A stretch of DNA of 64,000 nt, taken from contig DKJY01000130.1 of the NCBI GenBank assembly GCA_002454955.1, forward strand, positions 13,769 to 77,768. The letters are read 5' to 3'. Positions 3,101 to 62,417 of this stretch are shown in pieces. The stretch comes from Bacteroidales bacterium UBA6680. Lineage in GTDB: Bacteria > Bacteroidota > Bacteroidia > Bacteroidales > UBA6680. The translations under genes were made by a program, and so were the position numbers. The notes beneath the pieces were generated by a model that was given only the letters and a program-made list of their open reading frames with translations, did no database searches and was not told where the DNA came from. Each line of letters opens with the position of its first letter. The first letter of the stretch is position 1.

Positions 3101-6100
3101 ATGAACGAAATTTTACTCCGACAAATTACGACAAAAATAGGGAAGCTTCTCTTTATTATTTCTTTAGCATTAATATCATTTGAGAATGCATACTCTCAAC
3201 TTGATATGACTCACTATATTCCGCCTGCATGGGCAGCCGACAGGACATCTGGTGACTATAAAGATCATGCTATTGTTCTCTCAACGGGAGAGACAACTCC
3301 GTTTAATGTTACTCTTACAAATGGTGATGGAACATGGACAACAACCGTATCTATTAGTAAAAGTACTCCCAGAATAATTAATATGGGCGTTGTATCTTTT
3401 TCTGGTCCTTCAGGTCTAAGAGTTGAGAACAACGTTATTGGTGTTATTGGCGATGGACAGGTTAATATAACACTACCAAACGAAGGTATAATTGCCACAG
3501 GTAGTAAACCATTTTTTGTAAGTATCAGACACCGGTCAAATGCACAGGGAGGTATTATGACCTCTAAAGGAACTGTTGGTTTAGGACGTTCATTCTACTC
3601 AGGACATATGTACGGAGTGCGAGAAAATACCGCTGCAAGAGATTTGCACTTTATGTCTGTAATGGCTACAGAGGATAATACATTTATATCATATGATAAT
3701 CCGGGTGTAAGATTCAACGGTAACAATGTTGGTACAATAATAGGTGGTAGAGCAGGTATAAGACTTAACAGAGGTGAGTCATATGTATTTGGTGCTACAT
3801 TTGATGATCTGAACAACAATACCAATACCATTAATACAATGAATGGTACCCACATAACCTCTAATAAACCCGTAGCAGTGATTACAGGATCGTGGTGTTC
3901 ATCTGCATCAAGATCTACCAGAGATATGGGGTTTGACCAGATTGTACCAGATAATATTGTTGCCGATGAATATATTGTACAGAGAGGTTTTGGAAGAAAC
4001 AGTGTTGAGAAGGTGATTGTTGTTGCAGCAGAAGATAATGTTCAGTTGAGCCTTAATGGTGGTGGCTGGGGTAATACAATGACTAATGCCGGAGATTATG
4101 TAATACTTAATGAGAATGAATATGACAGTAATAACAACCTACATATTCTTGCCTCAGATAATATATATGTATATCAAACACTATTTGGTAGTACCAGTAC
4201 TGCCACCGGAGGATTTAGTTTTATTCCTCCACTTAAATGTACTGCCGATCACTCTGCAAATATATCATATGCAAACACATTGGTTAATCTGGGAAATACA
4301 GTAAATCCAATTATCAATATTATTACTCAGGAAGGGTCGCAGGTTTCTATAAATGGTACAAATGTACCAAAGGCATGGGCTAAAACGGTTTCCGGAAATA
4401 TATACTGGGAGACCTATTCTATTTCTAAGAATCAGCTACAGAACACATTTGGCGCTGTGGCAAATAACTGGAACTTTGAGGTTAGCTCTGAGGGAGCTAT
4501 TAATGTTTCGTTATCGGTTGAGAGTAGTATTGTTGGTGCTGGTGGTTACTACTCCGGATTTGGAGATAAACCTCAGATTGCCGGTAGACCTCACATTACA
4601 GGAGGGGCACTATGCGCAGGTGATATGGATCTGAATGTTGATGCAGGACTGTTCCCTTCATATAACTGGTATAACAACGGTGTTCAGATTCCTGGAGAAC
4701 ACAATGCAATTATTACTATTACAGATCCGGGAAGATATATGGCTACAGGACTTACTCCATGTAATGGTGGATGGATTGAGACATTCCCTTCTAACGCCAT
4801 TGTGGTAAGACCTTGTCTGGAGATTGCCAGCAAGATTGTGAATGAGGCCGATGGTACAATTCAGGTAAGGGTTAACCTTACACATGCAATTACTGATCCG
4901 GTAACATTCTACCTTTCAACAACTGCAGAGACTGCCGGACTTAATCAGGATTTTGGATCGGTTCAGAATACATTTACAATTCCGGCAGGCGATGATTATG
5001 TTGATGTTGATATTAATATAACTCAGGATCTGCTTGCTGAACCTGACGAAACATTTAAGGTTAATATATCGGTACCTACAAATGCTAATATAAATGTTGA
5101 TCAGGCAACCATTACAATTCAGGACGATGGTGACCCTAAACCGGATGTTACTACAACAACTGAGATTAGGGTTAACGAGGATGATCCGGCTGGTAAGTTC
5201 ACGGTTACTGTATCGCTTGATAAACCCAGTGGCTACACTACTGAGGTGGATGTGGCTGCTATTTCGCAAACTGCTACTGTTGGAATAGATGTTTTTGGGA
5301 CTATTCCGTCTAAATTAACATTTGATCCGGAAGAAACTACTAAATCCTTTGAGATATCTATTAATAACGATCCTGTGTACGAGCCTGAAGCTGCCGGATA
5401 TGAATATTTTGAGTTACAACTATCTAACTTCACAAATACAATATCTACAACGCCTATTACCGTGCAAGTGAAGATATACGATGATGAAACTCCTCCGGTT
5501 CTTACAATATCTGATCAGTCAGCCACCGAAGGAAATAATCTGCACTTTCTTGGTACTCTATCGCATACATGTAGTAAGAACATTACTATAGATTATATTA
5601 CCAGTGATTTAACTGCTAATCACCCTACTGATTATACTGGATTTCCGGTTAAGCAGACATATACCATTGCACCGGGTGCCAATACGCTTACTATAAATAT
5701 ACCGGCTATTGACGATGGTGTATCTGAAACTACTGAGAGCTTTAACCTTATACTCTCTGATCCGGTTAACTGTAATATTGGTACTAATCCGCTTACTCTA
5801 AAGGGCGATATATTCGACAGAAATGGTAAACCAAACCTTATTATTGAGGATAGTACTGCTATTGAGGGAGATAAAATTGCATTCAGAGCACATCTGTCTA
5901 TACCTAGTAGTTCGGATGTATCGTTTACATTTGTTACATCTAATGGTACTGCTACAGGAGCTGTTGATTATGAGCAGGTAGCTACAGACAGAACTATTAC
6001 AATTCCTGCTGGGACTATAAAAACATTCTTTGAGTTAAATACTACACAAGATGTTCTGGAAGAGGGTAATGAGACATTCTTTATAGATATTACATCATCA

Positions 6101-8266: not shown

Positions 8267-9730
8267 ATGAGAACCTTTTTTGCAATCATTGTACTTCTAT
8301 CAATCAATTTACTAAGCTCTAATGCTAAAGAATACGGCAAAGTGTATGTAACCGATTTTGTATTCATTTTACAAGATAATCTGGAATACAATATTAATCT
8401 ATCTTCTTTTCCTGATTATATAAGTAACGATCAAGACTTTAAATACAAAGTAAAAGAAATGACAATAAAAACTATTAAAGATAAATGGGGTGCTAAAGAG
8501 ATAATATTTCATGAAGACAGAGATTTTATGTTTTTTGCCAGTTTCTTTGCCTCTGTTGAGTCAGGAAAGGAACCAGCTTTAAATAGCATGGTAAAAGGTA
8601 TGAAAAAGAAGGAGGAAGGAAAAGGTAATTTTTGGCAACCATATTATACTCCAAAATTTAATAAACTGTATAAAAACAGAGAAGGTGGTGCCGACCTATA
8701 TGTATCTATTGTAACAAAATTACAGGTAAATAATTTCATTACACCAAAAGGTCCTAAATATCAGTTACTATTTGCTGTTAAAGCAAGAAATACCGAAAAG
8801 AAGAAGAATAGGGTATTTAAAAAGAATGTAAAACAAAATTTTCATGTAATTACTAGTCAGGAATATATTAATGCACCTGAGTATATAACAAAAGATGAAT
8901 TTGAGAAGGAGTTCTTAGCGCTTTATCCAGAAGCTTTTATTGATAAAAAACAGAAAAAGGCAGAGTCTAAATCATTTACGCGAAATATGTTTGCTCAGTA
9001 CAAAGATTTCTTTGAAAATAGAGATATTAAAAAATACTATGTAACAAGCCCGGCATATCCGAATTTTGAAACAGATAAACCTGAATTTGATATCCTCGCT
9101 AAGAGAGGTAAAAAGTTTAAACCATACAGCGTAATTAAAGCCACAGACGACGATTTTAGAGGTATTGGCAACGTAGGTAAAAAGTTTTCTGAAGCTAACA
9201 CCAAACACTCATACTATAAGATAAAAAACAAGCTCGATAAGAATACTTATAGAGTAGAGGTAATACTATTTCCTAAATCAGAAGATTTTAATAATTGGCT
9301 AAACAATAAGGTAAAGAAGGCTATATCAGGTAAAGAGTTGAAGAATTGGGATAGAACAGATGAGGTTATTGTAAGAATAGATAAGGCTGATTATCCTTTA
9401 AAGGTTAATTTTAAGGATATACAATACGGTACAGCTATGTTGAGTACATATGATATTGCTGGCGATATTCAGGGTACAGTATATAAGTACTCATATGGTC
9501 CTAGCAATGCTGTTATACACGAAATAACCATGAATGGCAAGTTAGTAGCATTAGCTCAATATGCGGGTTATGAGGTAGATAAAAAACAGGGTAAGGTATA
9601 TAAAAGAGCTGTATTTGTGGATCTGGATGTTGACGAAGCTTCGATACCAAAGATTTTTAACTTCTTTGTCATTGCCAGTTTGTATGACAATACAGTATAC
9701 TGGAACTCTAAAAACTCAGGTTTGTTTTAA
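8267..9730 (+). CDS. Secreted Lys-rich protein of unknown function
   Basis: This is a long ORF with an N-terminal signal peptide (MRTFFAIIVLLSINLLSSNA). I recognise no family motif. Confidence 0.6.
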   Translation: MRTFFAIIVLLSINLLSSNAKEYGKVYVTDFVFILQDNLEYNINLSSFPDYISNDQDFKYKVKEMTIKTIKDKWGAKEIIFHEDRDFMFFASFFASVESGKEPALNSMVKGMKKKEEGKGNFWQPYYTPKFNKLYKNREGGADLYVSIVTKLQVNNFITPKGPKYQLLFAVKARNTEKKKNRVFKKNVKQNFHVITSQEYINAPEYITKDEFEKEFLALYPEAFIDKKQKKAESKSFTRNMFAQYKDFFENRDIKKYYVTSPAYPNFETDKPEFDILAKRGKKFKPYSVIKATDDDFRGIGNVGKKFSEANTKHSYYKIKNKLDKNTYRVEVILFPKSEDFNNWLNNKVKKAISGKELKNWDRTDEVIVRIDKADYPLKVNFKDIQYGTAMLSTYDIAGDIQGTVYKYSYGPSNAVIHEITMNGKLVALAQYAGYEVDKKQGKVYKRAVFVDLDVDEASIPKIFNFFVIASLYDNTVYWNSKNSGLF

Positions 9731-9737
9731 ACAAATA

Positions 9738-9775
9738 GTATCATAAGTCAGAGGTTAATATCTGACTTATGATAC
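9738..9775 (+). terminator. Perfect 15-bp stem-loop after the 8267..9730 gene
   Basis: GTATCATAAGTCAGA ggttaata TCTGACTTATGATAC. There is no clear T-tract, so terminator function is uncertain. Confidence 0.45.
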
Positions 9776-9856
9776 CTATATATAATGAAAAATCAATCAA
9801 TATTATTTGATAATCACACTCATTTTTATTAACTTATATTACCAGACAAAACATTT

Positions 9857-48229: not shown

Positions 48230-48265
48230 AACCTATTTTACTGTCTTAAACAAGCTTAAGAATGA

Positions 48266-48375
48266 ATACCACTTATGGTCATACATAGTCACAAATTTGT
48301 ATATTTCCGCTTTTGTAAATAACTTTAACAAGTATGCTCTGCTAAACATACTGAGCACACACAATAAATATACGT
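48266..48375 (+). promoter_or_regulatory. Intergenic module B, copy 1 (decayed palindrome plus TTTG-N20-TAACTTTA promoter-like core)
   Basis: It is identical to the copy at 51055-51162 at 101 of 108 positions by my count, with a 53-nt uninterrupted identical run. TTTG lies at 48296-48299 and TAACTTTA at 48320-48327. Confidence 0.55.
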
Positions 48376-48567: not shown

Positions 48568-50007
48568 ATGAAAAAAATAATATTACTGATCATAAGCCTA
48601 GTGTTTATTAATGCTATTCAAGCACAAATTATCAATTCAGACTCCATTAAATTGGAACTCACAAAATATTTAAATCAACAAAAAGAGAAATATCAATTAC
48701 CAAGTCTGGTATTAGTATTGGTTCAGGGAGATAGTATAATTTATTCAAAAGCATTAGGGTATGCAGATGTTGAAAAAAAACTACCGGCAACTATTGATAG
48801 TAAATATCCTATAATGTCTATTACAAAGACGTTTACTGCTACTGTTTTAATGCAATTATATGAGGAAGGTAAATTATCATTGTATGACAAAGTGGAGACA
48901 TATATTCCGGAATATCAAGTTAAGACAGAAAATGGTAACAAGGCAAATACCAACTTGTTTCAGTTAAGTATACACAGTTCCGGTTTGGGTAGGAATTCAG
49001 GAGTTGATTTCCCTTATTTTAATTCATCAAATCGCTGGTATTTGAGTAACGGACAAGAAGAGTTAAAATGGTTTGTTACCAATAAAGAACTTTTAGCCTC
49101 GTTAAAAGAATTAAAACTGGAATATCCAGCGTATCATTTCTATCCTTTTAGCCGTCACTACTCCAATACAGGTTATGCACTATTAAGTATTGCTCTTGAA
49201 AGGATTAATAACAAGAGTATTACAAAATCTATAGAAGAAAACATCCTTCATCCTTTAGGAATGTTTAATACAGGATTTATAAATGAGAAAAACATCAGCA
49301 ATAAATTAGCAAAAGGTTACGCGCAATCCTGGAAAGATGACAAATTGCTAAAAGTACCAACCATTGATGTAGACAAAAATAATACAGTAATTGGAGCCGG
49401 TGGGTTATATTCAACAGGCCGTGATATGAGCAAGTATATCTCTTTTCAGTTGAGTAATAATAAACATAAAGAAGTCCTGTCCCAATTTTCAAAGAACAAA
49501 ATGTATTCTTTGAGAATAGGTTGGTCTTACTCTTATTACTATCCTTTTTCATTGATAACACACGATGGCGCTTTTATGGGATATAGAAGTCACATGGCAT
49601 TTAATCCCGACAAAGGAATAGGGTGGATTGTTTTTATCAATAAAAATGGTCAGCAAAGCGGTGAAAATGGAATGAGTTTCCGTAAATTAAATTCAAAAAT
49701 GGTTGAACTATTATATGATAGCAAAAACAATAATACCGAAGTAATCAATTATGAAAAGTATGTGGGTACATACAAAGCTATAGGAGGTAAAGAAGTAATT
49801 GAAATTAAGAAAGATGCTAAAGGTCTATATTCAACTCATTTAAACGACCTAATTGATAATACATACCTTGAACCAAATGGCTATCATTCGTTTATAGTAA
49901 AAGGAAATGGTGACCACAAAACCTATTATAAATTTATTATAGATAAGAACCAACGAGTAATCTCCTTAAAATTGGGGCCATTTGTTTGGAATAAAATTGA
50001 AAACTAA
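48568..50007 (+). CDS. Secreted beta-lactamase-fold serine hydrolase
   Basis: It has a signal peptide, an SxxK motif (MSITKTF) and a YxN motif (YSNTGY). Confidence 0.85.
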   Translation: MKKIILLIISLVFINAIQAQIINSDSIKLELTKYLNQQKEKYQLPSLVLVLVQGDSIIYSKALGYADVEKKLPATIDSKYPIMSITKTFTATVLMQLYEEGKLSLYDKVETYIPEYQVKTENGNKANTNLFQLSIHSSGLGRNSGVDFPYFNSSNRWYLSNGQEELKWFVTNKELLASLKELKLEYPAYHFYPFSRHYSNTGYALLSIALERINNKSITKSIEENILHPLGMFNTGFINEKNISNKLAKGYAQSWKDDKLLKVPTIDVDKNNTVIGAGGLYSTGRDMSKYISFQLSNNKHKEVLSQFSKNKMYSLRIGWSYSYYYPFSLITHDGAFMGYRSHMAFNPDKGIGWIVFINKNGQQSGENGMSFRKLNSKMVELLYDSKNNNTEVINYEKYVGTYKAIGGKEVIEIKKDAKGLYSTHLNDLIDNTYLEPNGYHSFIVKGNGDHKTYYKFIIDKNQRVISLKLGPFVWNKIEN

Positions 50008-50220
50008 AGCTAGTTGAGTAGGTAAAGGGGAATCTCACCCCTAAACCTCTCACAGAACCGTACGTGAACCTTTCAATTCATGCGGCACTTATCATGTTAT
50101 CAATTACCATATTAGATTAACTGACACATAATGTTAAATGATAAAACAGATTAGGATAACACTTATAGGTACACCGAAACTGATCCAAGTTTTCAGCTAA
50201 GATCATGACCATTAAAAATG
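50008..50220 (+). repeat. Intergenic module A, copy 1 (begins at the stop codon of the upstream gene)
   Basis: It shares blocks with the copies at 50819, 53194 and 57762: TAAAGCT-AGT...GTAGGTAAAGGGG..CTCACCCCTAAACCTCTCACAG, GAACCGTACGTGAACC, TCAATTCATGCGGC, TTATCATG, and TTTTCAGCTAAGAT. Confidence 0.8.
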
Positions 50221-50290
50221 GTTGCCACATATGGCAATACGTGGCAACAAAGTTGTATATTTCCGTTTTGTATATAACTTTAACAATCTA
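50221..50290 (+). promoter_or_regulatory. Intergenic module B, copy 2 (palindrome GTTGCCACATAT-GGCA-ATACGTGGCAAC plus TTG-N19-TAACTTTA)
   Basis: The palindrome spans 50221-50248. TTG lies at 50253-50255 and TAACTTTA at 50275-50282, 30 nt before the ATG at 50312. Confidence 0.55.
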
Positions 50291-50311
50291 CAGTTAGCCA
50301 CAACTAAACAA

Positions 50312-50818
50312 ATGGAACTTCGAAATCTAATAGGGAAAAAGATTAGTGATATAAGAATGGAAGTAAAAGATTTTCCATATGATGGAAGCATTCCATTGGA
50401 TGAATCTGTAAGCCATATTATTTTGGATTCAAATGAAATAATCGAAATTCCTTATCTAAATTCAAATTGCTTGTTATTAGAAGAAGCCCTATCGAAGAAT
50501 CAAAAAACAATCTTTGAAGAAAACGGAAATAAGTCTATACTTCATAAGTTATTTTTCCAGTCAGACTCTGATAATCTGATTACCAGAAATACCAATAATA
50601 TTAAAGACAAAGAAATTACAGCCATTTTTCAATATGATAGTCTATATTCAGATAAAGGTCGAGAATGGGATAAATGTTTGATCCAAGTTGAAAGTGGTTT
50701 TTTGATAAGTGAAAAAACAATCTCTCCTAAAGGGACAGGGCAAGCAGGAATTTGGATTTTTACCTCGCTTGAAGATTTAACAACAAAGATTGGAAGTGGT
50801 TTTAGAAAATTAATATAA
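50312..50818 (+). CDS. Hypothetical protein (168 aa)
   Basis: This is an ORF with an ATG at 50312 (MELRNLIGKK). The track ORF start at 50222 lies inside the repeat module and is unlikely to be real. No family was recognised. Confidence 0.5.
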   Translation: MELRNLIGKKISDIRMEVKDFPYDGSIPLDESVSHIILDSNEIIEIPYLNSNCLLLEEALSKNQKTIFEENGNKSILHKLFFQSDSDNLITRNTNNIKDKEITAIFQYDSLYSDKGREWDKCLIQVESGFLISEKTISPKGTGQAGIWIFTSLEDLTTKIGSGFRKLI

Positions 50819-51055
50819 CTAAAGAAGCAGCTAATACAGTAGACGGACATGAGCTGTAAAACCCACGTTGCACCTCTCACATGCTGATCATGCTGAAGTA
50901 GAACCATACGTGACCCAGCTTAATTCATATGGCTCTTATCATGCAGTCAATTGCTTAATTTAGGTTAACTGATAACCTAATGTACAATGGTAAAACAGAT
51001 TCGGGTAACTATTACAGAGGCATCACAGTTGATTACAGCTTTTCAGCTAAGATGA
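50819..51055 (+). repeat. Intergenic module A, copy 2
   Basis: A 58-nt stretch (TATCATGCAGTCAATTGCTTAATTTAGGTTAACTGATAACCTAATGTACAATGGTAAA) matches copy 3 at 57 of 58 positions. It contains the hairpin TTAGGTTA-actga-TAACCTAA (50960-50980). Confidence 0.85.
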
Positions 51056-51165
51056 TACCACGTATGGTCATACGTGGTCACAAATTTGTATATTTCCGCT
51101 TTTGTAAATAACTTTAACAAGTATGCTCTACTAAACATGCTGAGCACACACAATGTATATACAAA
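51056..51165 (+). promoter_or_regulatory. Intergenic module B, copy 3 (perfect palindrome ACCACGTATG-GT-CATACGTGGT plus TTTG-N20-TAACTTTA)
   Basis: The palindrome spans 51057-51078. TTTG lies at 51085-51088 and TAACTTTA at 51109-51116. A downstream small hairpin, TGCTC...GAGCA, is present. Confidence 0.6.
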
Positions 51166-52827: not shown

Positions 52828-53193
52828 ATGGAACAAACAAATATTGATCTGGTCTCCTATTGTGGATTTTACTGTGGCACTTGCCCCAAATATACTAAAG
52901 GACATTGTGAAGGATGTAAAGGTAATAACCCAAAGTGTGCAGTTGGTTACAAATCATGTCAGGTAAAACCATGCTGCATTGAGAATGAATTTAATTCATG
53001 TGCAAACTGTAATAGATTTGAATCAGTCAAGGATTGTAAATTATATAATCCATTTATGATACGATTTGGACAATTTATTACACAAACAAATCGGAAATTA
53101 GGGATTGAGATGATAAAGGCAAAAGGGGAAACAGAGTTTGCAAAATACATGATTGATAAAGGTTGGGTAACGATTAAGAGTAGAAAACAATAA
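52828..53193 (+). CDS. DUF3795-family Cys-rich protein
   Basis: The N-terminal YCGFYCGTCPKY...CEGCKG...C pattern is typical of DUF3795. Confidence 0.75.
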   Translation: MEQTNIDLVSYCGFYCGTCPKYTKGHCEGCKGNNPKCAVGYKSCQVKPCCIENEFNSCANCNRFESVKDCKLYNPFMIRFGQFITQTNRKLGIEMIKAKGETEFAKYMIDKGWVTIKSRKQ

Positions 53194-53400
53194 AGCTCAG
53201 TACACGTAGTAAAAGGGAACCTCACCCCTAAACCTCTCACAGCTCTACTGGGCATTGCCGAAGTAGAGCCGTATGTGCCCCCCTCAATTCATACGGCTAT
53301 TATCATGCAGTCAATTGCTTAATTTAGGTTAACTGATAACCTAATGTATAATGGTAAATCGCATTGGTTATAGCTTTTGTTAATTTGCTCCTATCCTATT
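53194..53400 (+). repeat. Intergenic module A, copy 3 (begins at the stop codon; followed by the 105-bp tandem array instead of module B)
   Basis: It has the same block order as copies 1 and 2. Its hairpins are GCTCTACT-N12-AGTAGAGC, AGCCGTATG-N14-CATACGGCT and TTAGGTTA-actga-TAACCTAA (53326-53346). Confidence 0.85.
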
Positions 53401-54300
53401 TTCTATTCAAACCATGTATCCGGAATACAAAACCACTAACCTGAAACATCAAACCTATAAACCTGAATTGTCAACCATCAATATTTTTGTGCAGACCATA
53501 CATCCAGAAACAAAAACCAAACATCCAGAATGCAAAACTGCTAATCTGAAATCATAAACCTATAAACCTGAGTTGGCAACCATCAATATTTCTGTGCAGA
53601 TCATCCATCCAGAAATAAAAACCAAACGTCCAGAATGCAAAACTGCTAATCTGAAATAACAAACCTATAAACCTGAGTTGGCAACCATCAATATTTCTGT
53701 GCAGATCATCCATCCAGAAATAAAAACCAAACGTCCAGAATGCAAAACTGCTAATCTGAAATCATAAACCTATAAACCAGAACTGTCAACCATCAATATT
53801 TCTGTGCAGATCATCCATCCAAAAATAAAAACCAAACGTCCAGAATGCAAAACTGCTAATCTGAAATAACAAACCTATAAACCTGAGTTGGCAACCATCA
53901 ATATTTCTGTGCAGATCATCCATCCAGAAATAAAAACCAAACATCCAGAATGCAAAACTGCTAATCTGAAATAATAAACCTATAAACCAGAACTGTAAAC
54001 CATCAATATTTCTGTACAGACCATACATCCAGAAATAAAAACCAAACATCCAGAATGCAAAACTGCTAATCTGAAATGACAAACCTATAAAACTGAACCG
54101 TAAACCATCAATATTTTTGTACAGACCATACGTCCAGAAATAAAAACAAAAAACAAAACATCCAGAATGCAAAATAACTAATCTGAAATAGCAAACCTAT
54201 AAGCCAGAACTGTAAACCATCAATATTTTTGTACAGACCTCAAATCCAAAAATAGAAATCATGAATACAGAATATAGAATCATTAACATGAAACATTAAT
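53401..54300. repeat. Tandem repeat array with a 105-bp unit: eight phased units plus degenerate flanking partial units
   Basis: The CCATCAATATT anchor occurs at 53475, 53580, 53685, 53790, 53895, 54000 and 54105 (exact 105-bp spacing) and at 54217 (112 bp). The alternating A/B unit variants give a 210-bp higher-order period. Each unit has an 8-bp inverted repeat, TATTTCTG-N15-CAGAAATA. Confidence 0.95.
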
Positions 54301-54528
54301 TCACAATGTTATTACAAATATTATTTAACAGCCAGAGACTTATTTGATAAATATTTTTGTTATTGCAATACGCATAAAGGTTAAAATATAGACAGAGATA
54401 CCATGAACAGTGATTTCTATGATAGAATAAGTTAGAAACCGGAAAAACTAATTTTATATTGACATAGTTATCAGTTATTTGTAATTTAATTAGCGATAAT
54501 ATTATTATAAATTAAAATCCTTTGGTTT

Positions 54529-55251: not shown

Positions 55252-55325
55252 TTCGGTTGCTTACTACTCTATTTGATAACGTAATTTGTATATTTCGCTT
55301 GGTAAGCAACACTTAACAAGTGAAT
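55252..55325 (+). promoter_or_regulatory. Intergenic module B', copy 1 (GTTGCTTAC...GTAAGCAAC inverted repeat flanking the AATTTGTATATTTCGC core)
   Basis: It shares GCTTACT..T.T..AT.T..TAACGTAATTTGTATATT-C-GCTT-GTAA with the copy at 58181-58245. The 9-bp inverted repeat lies at 55256-55264 and 55302-55310. Confidence 0.5.
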
Positions 55326-56840: not shown

Positions 56841-57761
56841 ATGAATAAATCAATATTGATAACAGGAGCCAATGCTGGAATTGGTAAAGAGACTGCAAGG
56901 CAATTAGCATTAATAGAAGAAACAGAATTAATCTATTTAGCATGTAGAAATCTTGAAAAAGCAGAAATAGCAAAGAAAGAACTAATTGAAATTACAGGAA
57001 GAGATATATTTAAAATTATTGTTCTGGATATCTCGAAACCTGATAATGTTAAGCAAGCTGTTTTACAATTATATGAACCAATAGATGCCGTAATAATGAA
57101 TGCTGGCGGAACAGGAGGAAAAACACCTGAAAAACTTACCAAAGATGGGGTTACAGAATTAACTGCGAGTAATCTTTTAGGACACGTTGTGCTTCTTGAT
57201 GAGTTAATATTGCAAAACAAATTAAATAATGTGGCTTTATTTGCTAGTTCTGAAGCCTCCAGAGGTATTGAAAGAGTGGGAATAAAAAGACCTGATTTAA
57301 AGGATAATTCAGTAGATGAATTTGTTTCAATTTTTGATGGAAGCAAGTTTAAAGGAAACTTTGATGCATATCAGATTTATGGCTGGATTAAATATGGAGG
57401 AACTCTTTGGATGAGTAATATGGCAAGAAAACATCCGAACATCAAATTTATAAGCATGAGTCCAGGGGGAACAAGGGGTACCAACGGTATGAATGATTTA
57501 CCTTTTTTAAAGAGAATATTTTTAAAACATATTGGAATGAAATTAATTATGCCATTAATGGGAATGTCGCATTCAGTAGAGAAAGGTGCAAAACGTTTTG
57601 TTGAAGGTATTAATAACCCAAAATTCAAAAGTGGTATATTTTATGCAAGTAAAGAAAAGGTATTAACAGGACAAGTTATAGATCAAAATAGTATTTGGAA
57701 GGATTTAGGTAATCATAAATTTCAAAATAATGCAGATATAGCAATTCATAAATTTATTTGA
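56841..57761 (+). CDS. Short-chain dehydrogenase/reductase (SDR) family oxidoreductase
   Basis: It has ITGANAGIGKETA (TGxxxGxG), NAGG, and a YxxxK candidate (YGWIK). Confidence 0.85.
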   Translation: MNKSILITGANAGIGKETARQLALIEETELIYLACRNLEKAEIAKKELIEITGRDIFKIIVLDISKPDNVKQAVLQLYEPIDAVIMNAGGTGGKTPEKLTKDGVTELTASNLLGHVVLLDELILQNKLNNVALFASSEASRGIERVGIKRPDLKDNSVDEFVSIFDGSKFKGNFDAYQIYGWIKYGGTLWMSNMARKHPNIKFISMSPGGTRGTNGMNDLPFLKRIFLKHIGMKLIMPLMGMSHSVEKGAKRFVEGINNPKFKSGIFYASKEKVLTGQVIDQNSIWKDLGNHKFQNNADIAIHKFI

Positions 57762-57930
57762 TTAGAAACATTAACCAATTAAGTAAGTAAAGGGAGGTCT
57801 CACCACCAGATCTCCCTTAGCTCTGCAAAACATACAGAGATAGAACCGTACGTGAACCTCCCTATCCGATGGTATATCTTATTAGATATAACTCAATGCC
57901 AATTTGCTCCTACCTTATGCTTTATTCATA
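57762..57930 (+). repeat. Intergenic module A, copy 4 (partial and diverged)
   Basis: It carries AGTAAGTAAAGGGAGGTCTCACCACCAGATCTCCC (a 9-bp stem with one G-T pair), GAACCGTACGTGAACC, and AATTTGCTCCTACCTTATGCTTTATTCA. The last block matches 53385-53410. Confidence 0.7.
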
Positions 57931-58180
57931 TTAATTTTTGGTAATGATATTTATCAATGGTATTACCTACAGTAAATGACAAACCTTCTACTCTCAATGT
58001 TCTATATCAGTTACGCTAAGTGTAACTAAAGTCAAATGCTATTCAAACTTTAACTATATAATATATAATCAACTATAGCTTGTATCTGGCAATAACAGAA
58101 CCAGCTTATAGTTTATATTAGTTAAGGTTAAACCCCACCCACAAAGGACTTCTCTTTCCGAACAATTCAGATGCTTACTG

Positions 58181-58245
58181 TTGTTATATCTAACGTAATT
58201 TGTATATTCCGCTTTGTAAATAACTTTAATCCTGAGCACTATGAC
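58181..58245 (+). promoter_or_regulatory. Intergenic module B', copy 2 (TTTG-N18-TAACTTTA)
   Basis: TTTG lies at 58209-58212 and TAACTTTA at 58231-58238. It is similar to 55252-55325 upstream of the core and to the B copies downstream of it. Confidence 0.5.
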
Positions 58246-59787: not shown

Positions 59788-59913
59788 AATGCATATTGCC
59801 TGAATATAATAGACAAAATGGGAATCTTACACATAAATCTCTCATCAGATTAACCAATAAAAATCTGTATATAATTCGCATCACTTACAATTGAGTTAAA
59901 CAAATACTACTGA

Positions 59914-62101: not shown

Positions 62102-62417
62102 AAAGTAGGATAAAACAAACTAGTTGATTAAATTTTTAATACATAATTTAAGGATAATAAATAACAGCAAACTACTCATAGCAGAGTAGGTAAAGAGTAG
62201 TCTCATCATTAATGATATTTATTAATGGCATTATCTACCATATTACCACATGCGTTATTCCGATCTTTATGTACCCAACAATAAACAGAATTTGTTTAGT
62301 TTGATAAATGAGTTAAATAGGATAAATTTAAAAAGAAAAAATTAGCTGCAACATTAAATAAATAGTATTAAAACAACGTTTATTATTACCGTTGACACTA
62401 ATTTAAAAGAAATCTAA

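Follow-up and report, generated by a model that had tools for sequence, protein, structure and literature searches.

The repeated, hairpin-rich element called Module A, which follows four genes in the window (the whole 64-kb stretch of DNA analyzed here), very probably comprises four dead copies of a mobile group II intron, each truncated at its 5' end and oriented antisense to the neighboring plus-strand genes. Each copy represents the final ~150-220 nt of such an intron: the last codons of the reverse transcriptase (RT)/maturase, the 3' strand of domain IV, and domains V and VI. An earlier note on this DNA had read the same blocks on the plus strand, as hairpins abutting stop codons. The feature is real and was correctly observed, but it was wrongly interpreted: it is repeated, co-varying, mobile, and derived from a structured RNA, as proposed, but the RNA is that of the minus strand, and the roles suggested for it (3' UTR or sRNA, RNA-stability element, single-stranded DNA recombination site) are unsupported, the structures being group II domains V and VI. 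Module A is thus a well-known kind of remnant, ordinary retroelement debris read on the wrong strand, and the case has its value mainly as a correction, in that RNA-motif scans near gene ends should check the opposite strand against group II domains V/VI.

The four copies and their setting

The window is a segment of a Bacteroidota chromosome with a low GC content (~33%). Core genes of the ordinary kind (MutS2, HtpG, two-component systems, and others) lie to the left of an array of >20 co-oriented, functionally unrelated accessory genes, whose edges are formed by T9SS-sorted cadherin-like proteins and which include MatE, beta-lactamase-family, SDR, and DNA-alkylation repair proteins, AraC regulators, a PLP decarboxylase, hydrolases, and acetyltransferases. 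Only 4 of the >20 spacers in this array carry Module A. No integrase (Phage_integrase-family or IntI), transposase, RT, or recombinase was found in the 64-kb window or the 8 kb to its right, and no RVT_1 or GIIM protein is encoded in the 64-kb window. A tRNA scan of the window found none, and a tRNA-linked element was rejected on this ground. Two metagenome contigs match the window: one from coral is 100% identical and stops within a 105-bp tandem repeat, and one from JGI is 99.6% identical, with every difference inside one 105-bp tandem repeat. All Module A copies are identical between the two strains compared. The features of the array and of the copies are as follows.

~46.8 kb (46800) to 64000, and 8 kb beyond (L071 11044-19300), plus strand: accessory-gene array
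53304-54360: 105-bp tandem repeat, ~9 units, directly adjoining Module A copy 3
50013..50205, minus strand: copy 1, 5'-truncated group II intron remnant (Rfam, blastn, nhmmer)
about 50129-50164, minus strand: copy 1, RT C-terminal pseudo-codons
50055-50088, minus strand: copy 1, domain V, catalytic triad AGC changed to UGC
50013-50054, minus strand: copy 1, domain VI with bulged branch A, and 3' end
50834..51055, minus strand: copy 2, group II intron remnant (tblastn, blastn, weak Rfam D5, nhmmer)
51055->50963, minus strand: copy 2, 31 RT C-terminal codons with two in-frame stops
50901-50935, minus strand: copy 2, domain V, AGC kept, upper helix and loop disrupted
53200..53409, minus strand: copy 3, group II intron remnant (tblastn, blastn, nhmmer)
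53386->53327, minus strand: copy 3, RT C-terminal codons
53266-53299, minus strand: copy 3, domain V, lower helix intact, upper helix destroyed
57778..57930, minus strand: copy 4, most decayed remnant (nhmmer, D5 3' strand match)
57842-57860, minus strand: copy 4, retained domain V 3' half, 19/19 nt match to the D5 3' strand
59816..59849, minus strand: possible vestigial domain VI stub, ~30 nt past the PLP-decarboxylase stop (59787)

Every copy shows the same order on the minus strand, from the last 12-31 RT codons (a pseudogene) through domain V and domain VI to the 3' splice end. Domain V is defined by a hairpin of ~34 nt that carries an AGC (or CGC) catalytic triad, a bulge of 2 nt, and a loop of the GNRA type, and domain VI by a bulged branch-point A 7-8 nt before the 3' splice site. 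An Rfam search, which had been proposed as a check, matched RF00029 on the minus strand of copy 1 (50090->50013) with 50.4 bits against a gathering score of 40; copy 2 carries a canonical domain V hairpin on the minus strand (GAGCCAUAUGA...UCACGUAUGGUUC) with the AGC triad and gives a weak Rfam D5 match. At a permissive E-value, the remaining Rfam matches were at chance level (Phe leader, RNAI etc.), at a terminator near 43.85 kb.

The copies were also compared with an intact intron of Carboxylicivirga linearis (locus L030). Copy 1 is 85% identical to its 3' end over 150 nt (E = 2e-42). Copy 2 matches it at 83% over 119 nt by blastn and at RT residues 387-417, with two in-frame stops, by tblastn (E = 3e-6), and copy 3 at 72% over 152 nt and at RT residues 398-417 (E = 0.006). 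An nhmmer profile made solely from intron 3' ends of other genomes and run against the 64-kb window matched 50014-50199 (E = 2e-42), 53209-53368 (E = 8e-32), 50872-51028 (E = 7e-30), and 57781-57865 (E = 2e-6). These are exactly the four copies, 4/4 on the minus strand, so that the four homologous copies reported earlier were all recovered at essentially the same coordinates. Nothing else was significant with this profile in the 64 kb or the 8-kb extension, the only marginal match being the stub at 59817-59844 (E = 0.57); by blastn this stub (59816..59849) is 82% identical over 34 nt (E = 0.03-0.04), and it is not significant alone.

The hairpins described on the plus strand are all present and find their place in this structure. 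The first stem forms the distal portion of domain VI, and the second, whose arms co-vary as CCATA/TATGG versus CCGTA/TACGG, corresponds to the lower helix of domain V. The TTAGGTTA-n5-TAACCTAA hairpin falls within domain IV, over the codons (LGYQLT*) with which the intron RT gene ends.

The state of decay differs between the copies. Domain VI of copy 1 reads GAGAGG...CCU[A]CUCAAC, with the branch A bulged. The AGC triad and the domain V lower helix are retained in copies 2 and 3, in each of which an insert separates domains V and VI; domain VI is degenerate in copy 2, and its 3' strand is degenerate in copy 3. Copy 4 has kept some RT C-terminal coding sequence and has a block (57901-57928) in common with copy 3 at 53382-53409, but an internal deletion took the 5' half of its domain V, and its domain VI has diverged. 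The branch-A feature is degenerate in copies 2-4, and in copies 3 and 4 the degeneracy of domain VI allows the 3' end to be placed only to within a few nt. Rfam gave no match to domains I-IV (D1-D4) in the window, and a blastn search with the full intron matched only its last ~190 nt, with no rest of the parent intron. With D1-D4 and an RT gene missing and disabling changes in 4/4 copies, they cannot splice or move: the Module A copies are fragments of group II introns and not functional members of that family.

Some shorter stretches of the array bear a resemblance to these remnants. A 44-nt stretch at 62169-62212 resembles a domain VI 3' strand with its junction, and was not significant in the profile search; a 29-nt repeat occurs both at 57942-57970, flanking copy 4, and at 62210-62238, beside that stretch. 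The MatE spacer may hold a ~35-nt stub of a remnant (48230-48267).

Parent intron family and landing sites

Relatives were sought by a motif scan of 185,579 species genomes. The first pattern, of 18 fixed bases, gave 26 matches where about 17 are expected by chance, and the Bacteroidota matches alone were used; the credible Module A relatives from the motif scan are restricted to the Bacteroidota and belong mostly to the Marinilabiliales. In C. linearis, locus L030 holds an intact ~1.9-kb intron with Rfam matches to D1-D4 and D5-D6 and a 417-aa RVT_1+GIIM protein, whose C-terminus reads ...FPNLFYHWTLGYQLT*. The parent of Module A is an abundant family of such ~1.9-kb introns, with a 417-aa RT that has no endonuclease domain, common in the Marinilabiliales and other Bacteroidota. 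Its truncated members begin at intron positions 554, 1344, 1427, 1617, 1695, 1773, 1778, and 1846 of 1938, which agrees with the published view that truncation or inactivation has affected most group II copies in bacteria (PMC4424553). In a comparison with solved RTs, the RT of the parent scores 158 bits against GsI-IIC, 130 against IIB (6me0), and 128 against IIA (LtrA). It is only marginally closer to the IIC RT than to the others, and could be class F-like (class F/g2-like; PMC3552965).

Ahead of every intact parent copy found via RT homologues (15/15) stands ...CTACTCGAT/GTGTGCTG, the 3' end of a class C intron. The parent directly follows this partner and has another intron's domain VI for its 5' exon. 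The partner RT is clearly class C, with 312-323 bits to IIC RTs (E = 3e-95 to 7uim and 5e-92 to GsI-IIC), and in L057 the partner itself follows an obvious classic terminator hairpin. The literature searched yielded no description of this arrangement of the parent in tandem behind a class C intron, and the presence of a class C intron directly ahead of every intact copy examined may interest specialists in mobile elements. No trace of the partner was found in the window, so its past presence there is inferred: the position of the parent behind a class C intron, plain in other genomes, would have applied to the window as well.

Tandem pairs occur at L030 3683-7500, L056-L061, and L066-L070, and the partner domain V has a CGC triad. 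The partner RT measures 412-458 aa in most loci, and the partner is ORF-less in L066. An identical parent/class C pair adjoins at least four different 3' exons. Among fragments from a Saccharicrinis MAG, L015 is fused upstream to 5' ribozyme sequence, and L018, L021, and L023 are fused upstream to the sequence coding for the C-terminus of the class C partner RT; the junctions of these four differ, and they are deletion hybrids of the tandem pair. Decayed copies elsewhere carry hairpin insertions of ~25-30 nt in domain V (L017 ~3750-3800, L020 ~4330-4370, L039 ~250-280), and L035 likewise has small ones inside decayed domain V at 8418-8450 and 9756-9788. The same insertion in different loci suggests a tiny secondary mobile or expanding hairpin.

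The relation to stop codons was described correctly in the earlier note and extends beyond the window. The copies begin 5, 15, 6, and 16 nt after plus-strand ORF stops: the 3' end of copy 1 lies 5 nt from the TAA at 50005-50007, that of copy 2 15 nt from the stop at 50816-50818, and those of copies 3 and 4 about 6 and about 16 nt from the stops at 53191-53193 and 57759-57761. The earlier note had called for a look at copies elsewhere for a consistent relation: the stop of a convergent ORF lies <=15 nt from the intron 3' end in 15/30 evaluable copies from many genomes, compared with 1.1% of random positions, and <=45 nt away in 19/30 compared with 3.2%. Antisense landing within ~15 nt of stop codons is thus ~50x chance in the parent intron family, which may be of interest to specialists. 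A second array of co-oriented genes, with three antisense fragments, is found in L035.

The 3' exons recur as TAGC..., often as TAGCWTTAGTT (W1, W2, L015, L020, L024, L039, L040, L053-L055, L066), so that several unrelated genes end in ...AACTAA(N)GCTA/intron; in L024 the TAG stop codon of the gene includes the intron's last base. The recurrent bases suggest a target-site sequence preference beyond the hairpin that is found at the other end of some copies. The following hairpins and related modules were observed in the window.

50221..50248, minus strand: palindromic hairpin directly 5' (intron sense) of copy 1, 12-bp stem then CATTTTTAAT
51058..51077, minus strand: palindromic hairpin CCACGTATGGTCATACGTGG directly 5' (intron sense) of copy 2, z = -3.0
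48256-48345, 50212-50300, and 51045-51135, with partial versions at 55283-55323 and 58197-58229: hairpin/promoter-like module

The hairpin at the 5' junction of copy 1 is terminator-like, with a T-run on the intron strand and a DNA fold z = -3.2, and is likely to be the hairpin target motif of the original insertion. The hairpin and junction recur in copy 2 and in L024 according to the alignment. As copies 1 and 2 are DNA-level relatives, their hairpins count as about one independent case. The DNA fold test of 5'-junction hairpins was not significant at copies 3 and 4, the 62.2-kb stub, and the MatE spacer. The repeated module joins a palindromic hairpin to a promoter-like tract (...CACAAATTTGTATATTTCCGCTTTTGTAAATAACTTTAACAA). 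Several array genes have it upstream, in some cases next to an intron remnant and in others not.

The usual site of an IIC intron is behind the terminator of a gene in the same orientation. In the mechanism that we propose, the intron would insert antisense to the gene, immediately beyond a hairpin near the stop codon, and such an insertion would leave the intron 3' end a few nt from that stop. The remaining intron would have been lost afterwards, through incomplete reverse transcription or deletion. Antisense insertion of this kind would explain the abutment in the window, and we infer that a retroelement's preference for certain insertion sites underlies the link to stop codons. IIC introns are described as targeting terminators or attC sites (PMC4424553, PMC1702495), and IIC-attC introns as antisense to the cassette genes, in the interval that separates a gene from its hairpin; 5'-truncated DV-DVI fragments have already been described in cassette arrays (PMC3001079, PMC7923331).

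A further-reaching proposal, which we put forward tentatively and think rather unlikely, is that the parent lineage homes obligately to the class C 3' splice junction, and that the remnants together with the hairpin/promoter modules act as homology tracts for gene swaps. If true, the homing would be a ride on the hairpin targeting of the partner and would explain the genome-wide antisense landing within ~15 nt of stop codons, and the remnants and modules would mediate an integrase-less, cassette-like exchange of genes between genomes in an array of the Marinilabiliales type. It should be noted that neither the landing habit nor the class C tandem alters what the four copies in the window are.

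Later history of the copies and alternative readings

Copies 1 and 2 and the copy in the related genome L024 have one truncation point and one flanking hairpin in common, which indicates that this unit was copied later as DNA. The earlier observation that copies 2 and 3 match at 57 of 58 positions is exact (50936-50993 versus 53300-53357), and this near-identical block points to gene conversion between the copies; of the two processes that had been suggested, recent spread and gene conversion, the first fits a sequence that spread as a mobile element and the second fits this block. Copy 1 is closer to the intact introns of other genera (85%) than to copy 2 (73%) or copy 3 (67%), which is a pattern of star-like decay. 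In L024, a MatE gene with 92% DNA identity has different neighbors on either side, and a different gene stands between it and the homologous Module A with its hairpin.

These observations bear on a reading in which the remnants have been exapted as boundary elements, forming with the hairpin/promoter module portable homology or recombination sites for shuffling the accessory genes of an integron-like cassette array that has no integrase. We consider this quite improbable, although several features point towards it. The array has >20 co-oriented, unrelated accessory genes with repeated intergenic modules, and the succession of gene, antisense intron, hairpin, and next gene is the geometry of IIC-attC cassettes (PMC3001079, PMC7923331). 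Neighbors of the MatE gene have been exchanged relative to L024, including the gene before Module A and its hairpin; the 57/58 block shows recombination between copies, and the unit shared by copies 1 and 2 and L024 was propagated as DNA. The co-orientation of the array and the gene replacement relative to L024 keep this reading weakly alive. Against it, nothing that encodes an integrase, transposase, or RT was found in the window or the 8 kb beyond. When both strands of the whole array were searched for attC architecture (R''-L''...L'-R', RYYYAAC...GTTRRRY, as imperfect 55-140 nt palindromes behind each cassette) with a crude scan for pattern and pairing, 0 sites resulted compared with 0.1 in shuffles, and the hairpin is only 20-28 nt long; for CALIN, an adjacent IntI is not required. 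Most of the >20 spacers have no Module A, and the copies are 27-33% diverged and variously deleted, as neutral decay predicts. Moreover, ordinary homologous recombination among any dispersed repeats would yield the same signals.

The second alternative is a structured RNA on the plus strand that belongs to the upstream gene, be it a 3' UTR, an sRNA, a stability element, or a terminator without a T-tract. The short distance of 5-16 nt to the stop codons and the ability of the hairpins to fold on either strand speak for it. The covariation described in the earlier note is real and belongs to the minus-sense structure: across 14 distinct family members, 93.5% of the positions in the minus-sense D5/D6 structure are paired and 11 pairs have changed on both sides, a result that 0/500 shuffles reached and that dropped to 35-51% paired in slid controls. 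Against the plus-strand reading, the covariance model matches on the minus strand only, several D5/D6 pairs are G.U wobbles in every member and would read as C.A mismatches on the plus strand, and the minus strand also carries the recognizable RT pseudo-ORF; these three observations identify the minus strand as the selected RNA. Homology to the end of an intact retroelement argues in the same direction, as do the large indels that destroy individual hairpins and the loss of half of D5 in copy 4. The abutment itself recurs in unrelated genomes because of where the family inserts. We therefore judge the plus-strand reading highly improbable. Plus-strand folds of the D5 region range from -3.3 to -11.7 kcal/mol, and the comparison of strands is uninformative for decayed copies. 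The compensatory changes were fixed in active parent lineages while the ribozyme was functional; covariation that dates from active parents says nothing on function at the present sites, where the plus-strand hairpins may have a secondary (exapted) role. An intrinsic terminator of the upstream gene was also considered and rejected, as no terminator-like site on the plus strand lies inside any copy, in agreement with the statement that none of these hairpins is a T-tract terminator.

Functional mini-introns or trans-splicing group II 3' halves, helped by 5' halves or an RT elsewhere, deserve practically no credence: copy 1 has a near-complete D5-D6 above the Rfam threshold with its branch A bulged, and ORF-less partners are known in related loci (L066), but the triad of copy 1 is UGC, copies 2 and 3 have lost the D5 upper helix, copy 4 is missing half of D5, D1-D4 are absent from the window, and no exon would be joined, since antisense gene ends and promoters form the flanks.

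Likeness to known systems

Twintrons and nested arrays, as in Methanosarcina (PMC4424553), resemble the parent of Module A in that it likewise occupies a fixed site set by another intron, namely its 3' end. The parent arrangement, seen outside the window only, is in contrast a tandem at the 3' splice junction and is not nested in an ORF.

The IIB1 'groEL' introns insert in stop codons and can integrate in tandem (PMC12584367), and like the Module A family they have a position tied to a stop codon. They have, however, the same orientation as their host, one specific housekeeping gene whose stop codon they interrupt, and must splice, whereas the Module A copies are antisense, 5-16 nt beyond the stops of many unrelated genes, and dead.

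Class C (IIC) introns insert after intrinsic terminators according to PMC1702495 and to Robart et al. 2007 as related in PMC12584367. Like them, copy 1 has a stem-loop followed by Ts directly 5' on the intron strand; unlike them, Module A derives from the downstream partner and is antisense to the neighboring genes.

The IIC-attC introns take the same position opposite co-oriented cassette-like genes, between the stop codon and a hairpin, and the 3' exon of Module A often opens with T-R-R-(R)-Y (TAGC.., TGAGC), like an R'' box cut at TTGT/T. Here, however, no attC architecture or integron integrase was found, the hairpin is 20-28 nt long, the parent RT is not clearly class C, and the genes have their own promoter-like modules and long spacers.

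The closest likeness is to the truncated group II copies of bacteria (Dai & Zimmerly surveys; reviewed in PMC4424553). These have retained the same 3'-terminal part and lost the 5' domains and the RT, and they are found in the same intergenic, multiple, and diverged state with inactivating mutations, so that nothing essential differs. What sets the present instance apart is that four copies are clustered within 8 kb of a single array and that one truncated version was propagated at the DNA level together with its flanking hairpin.
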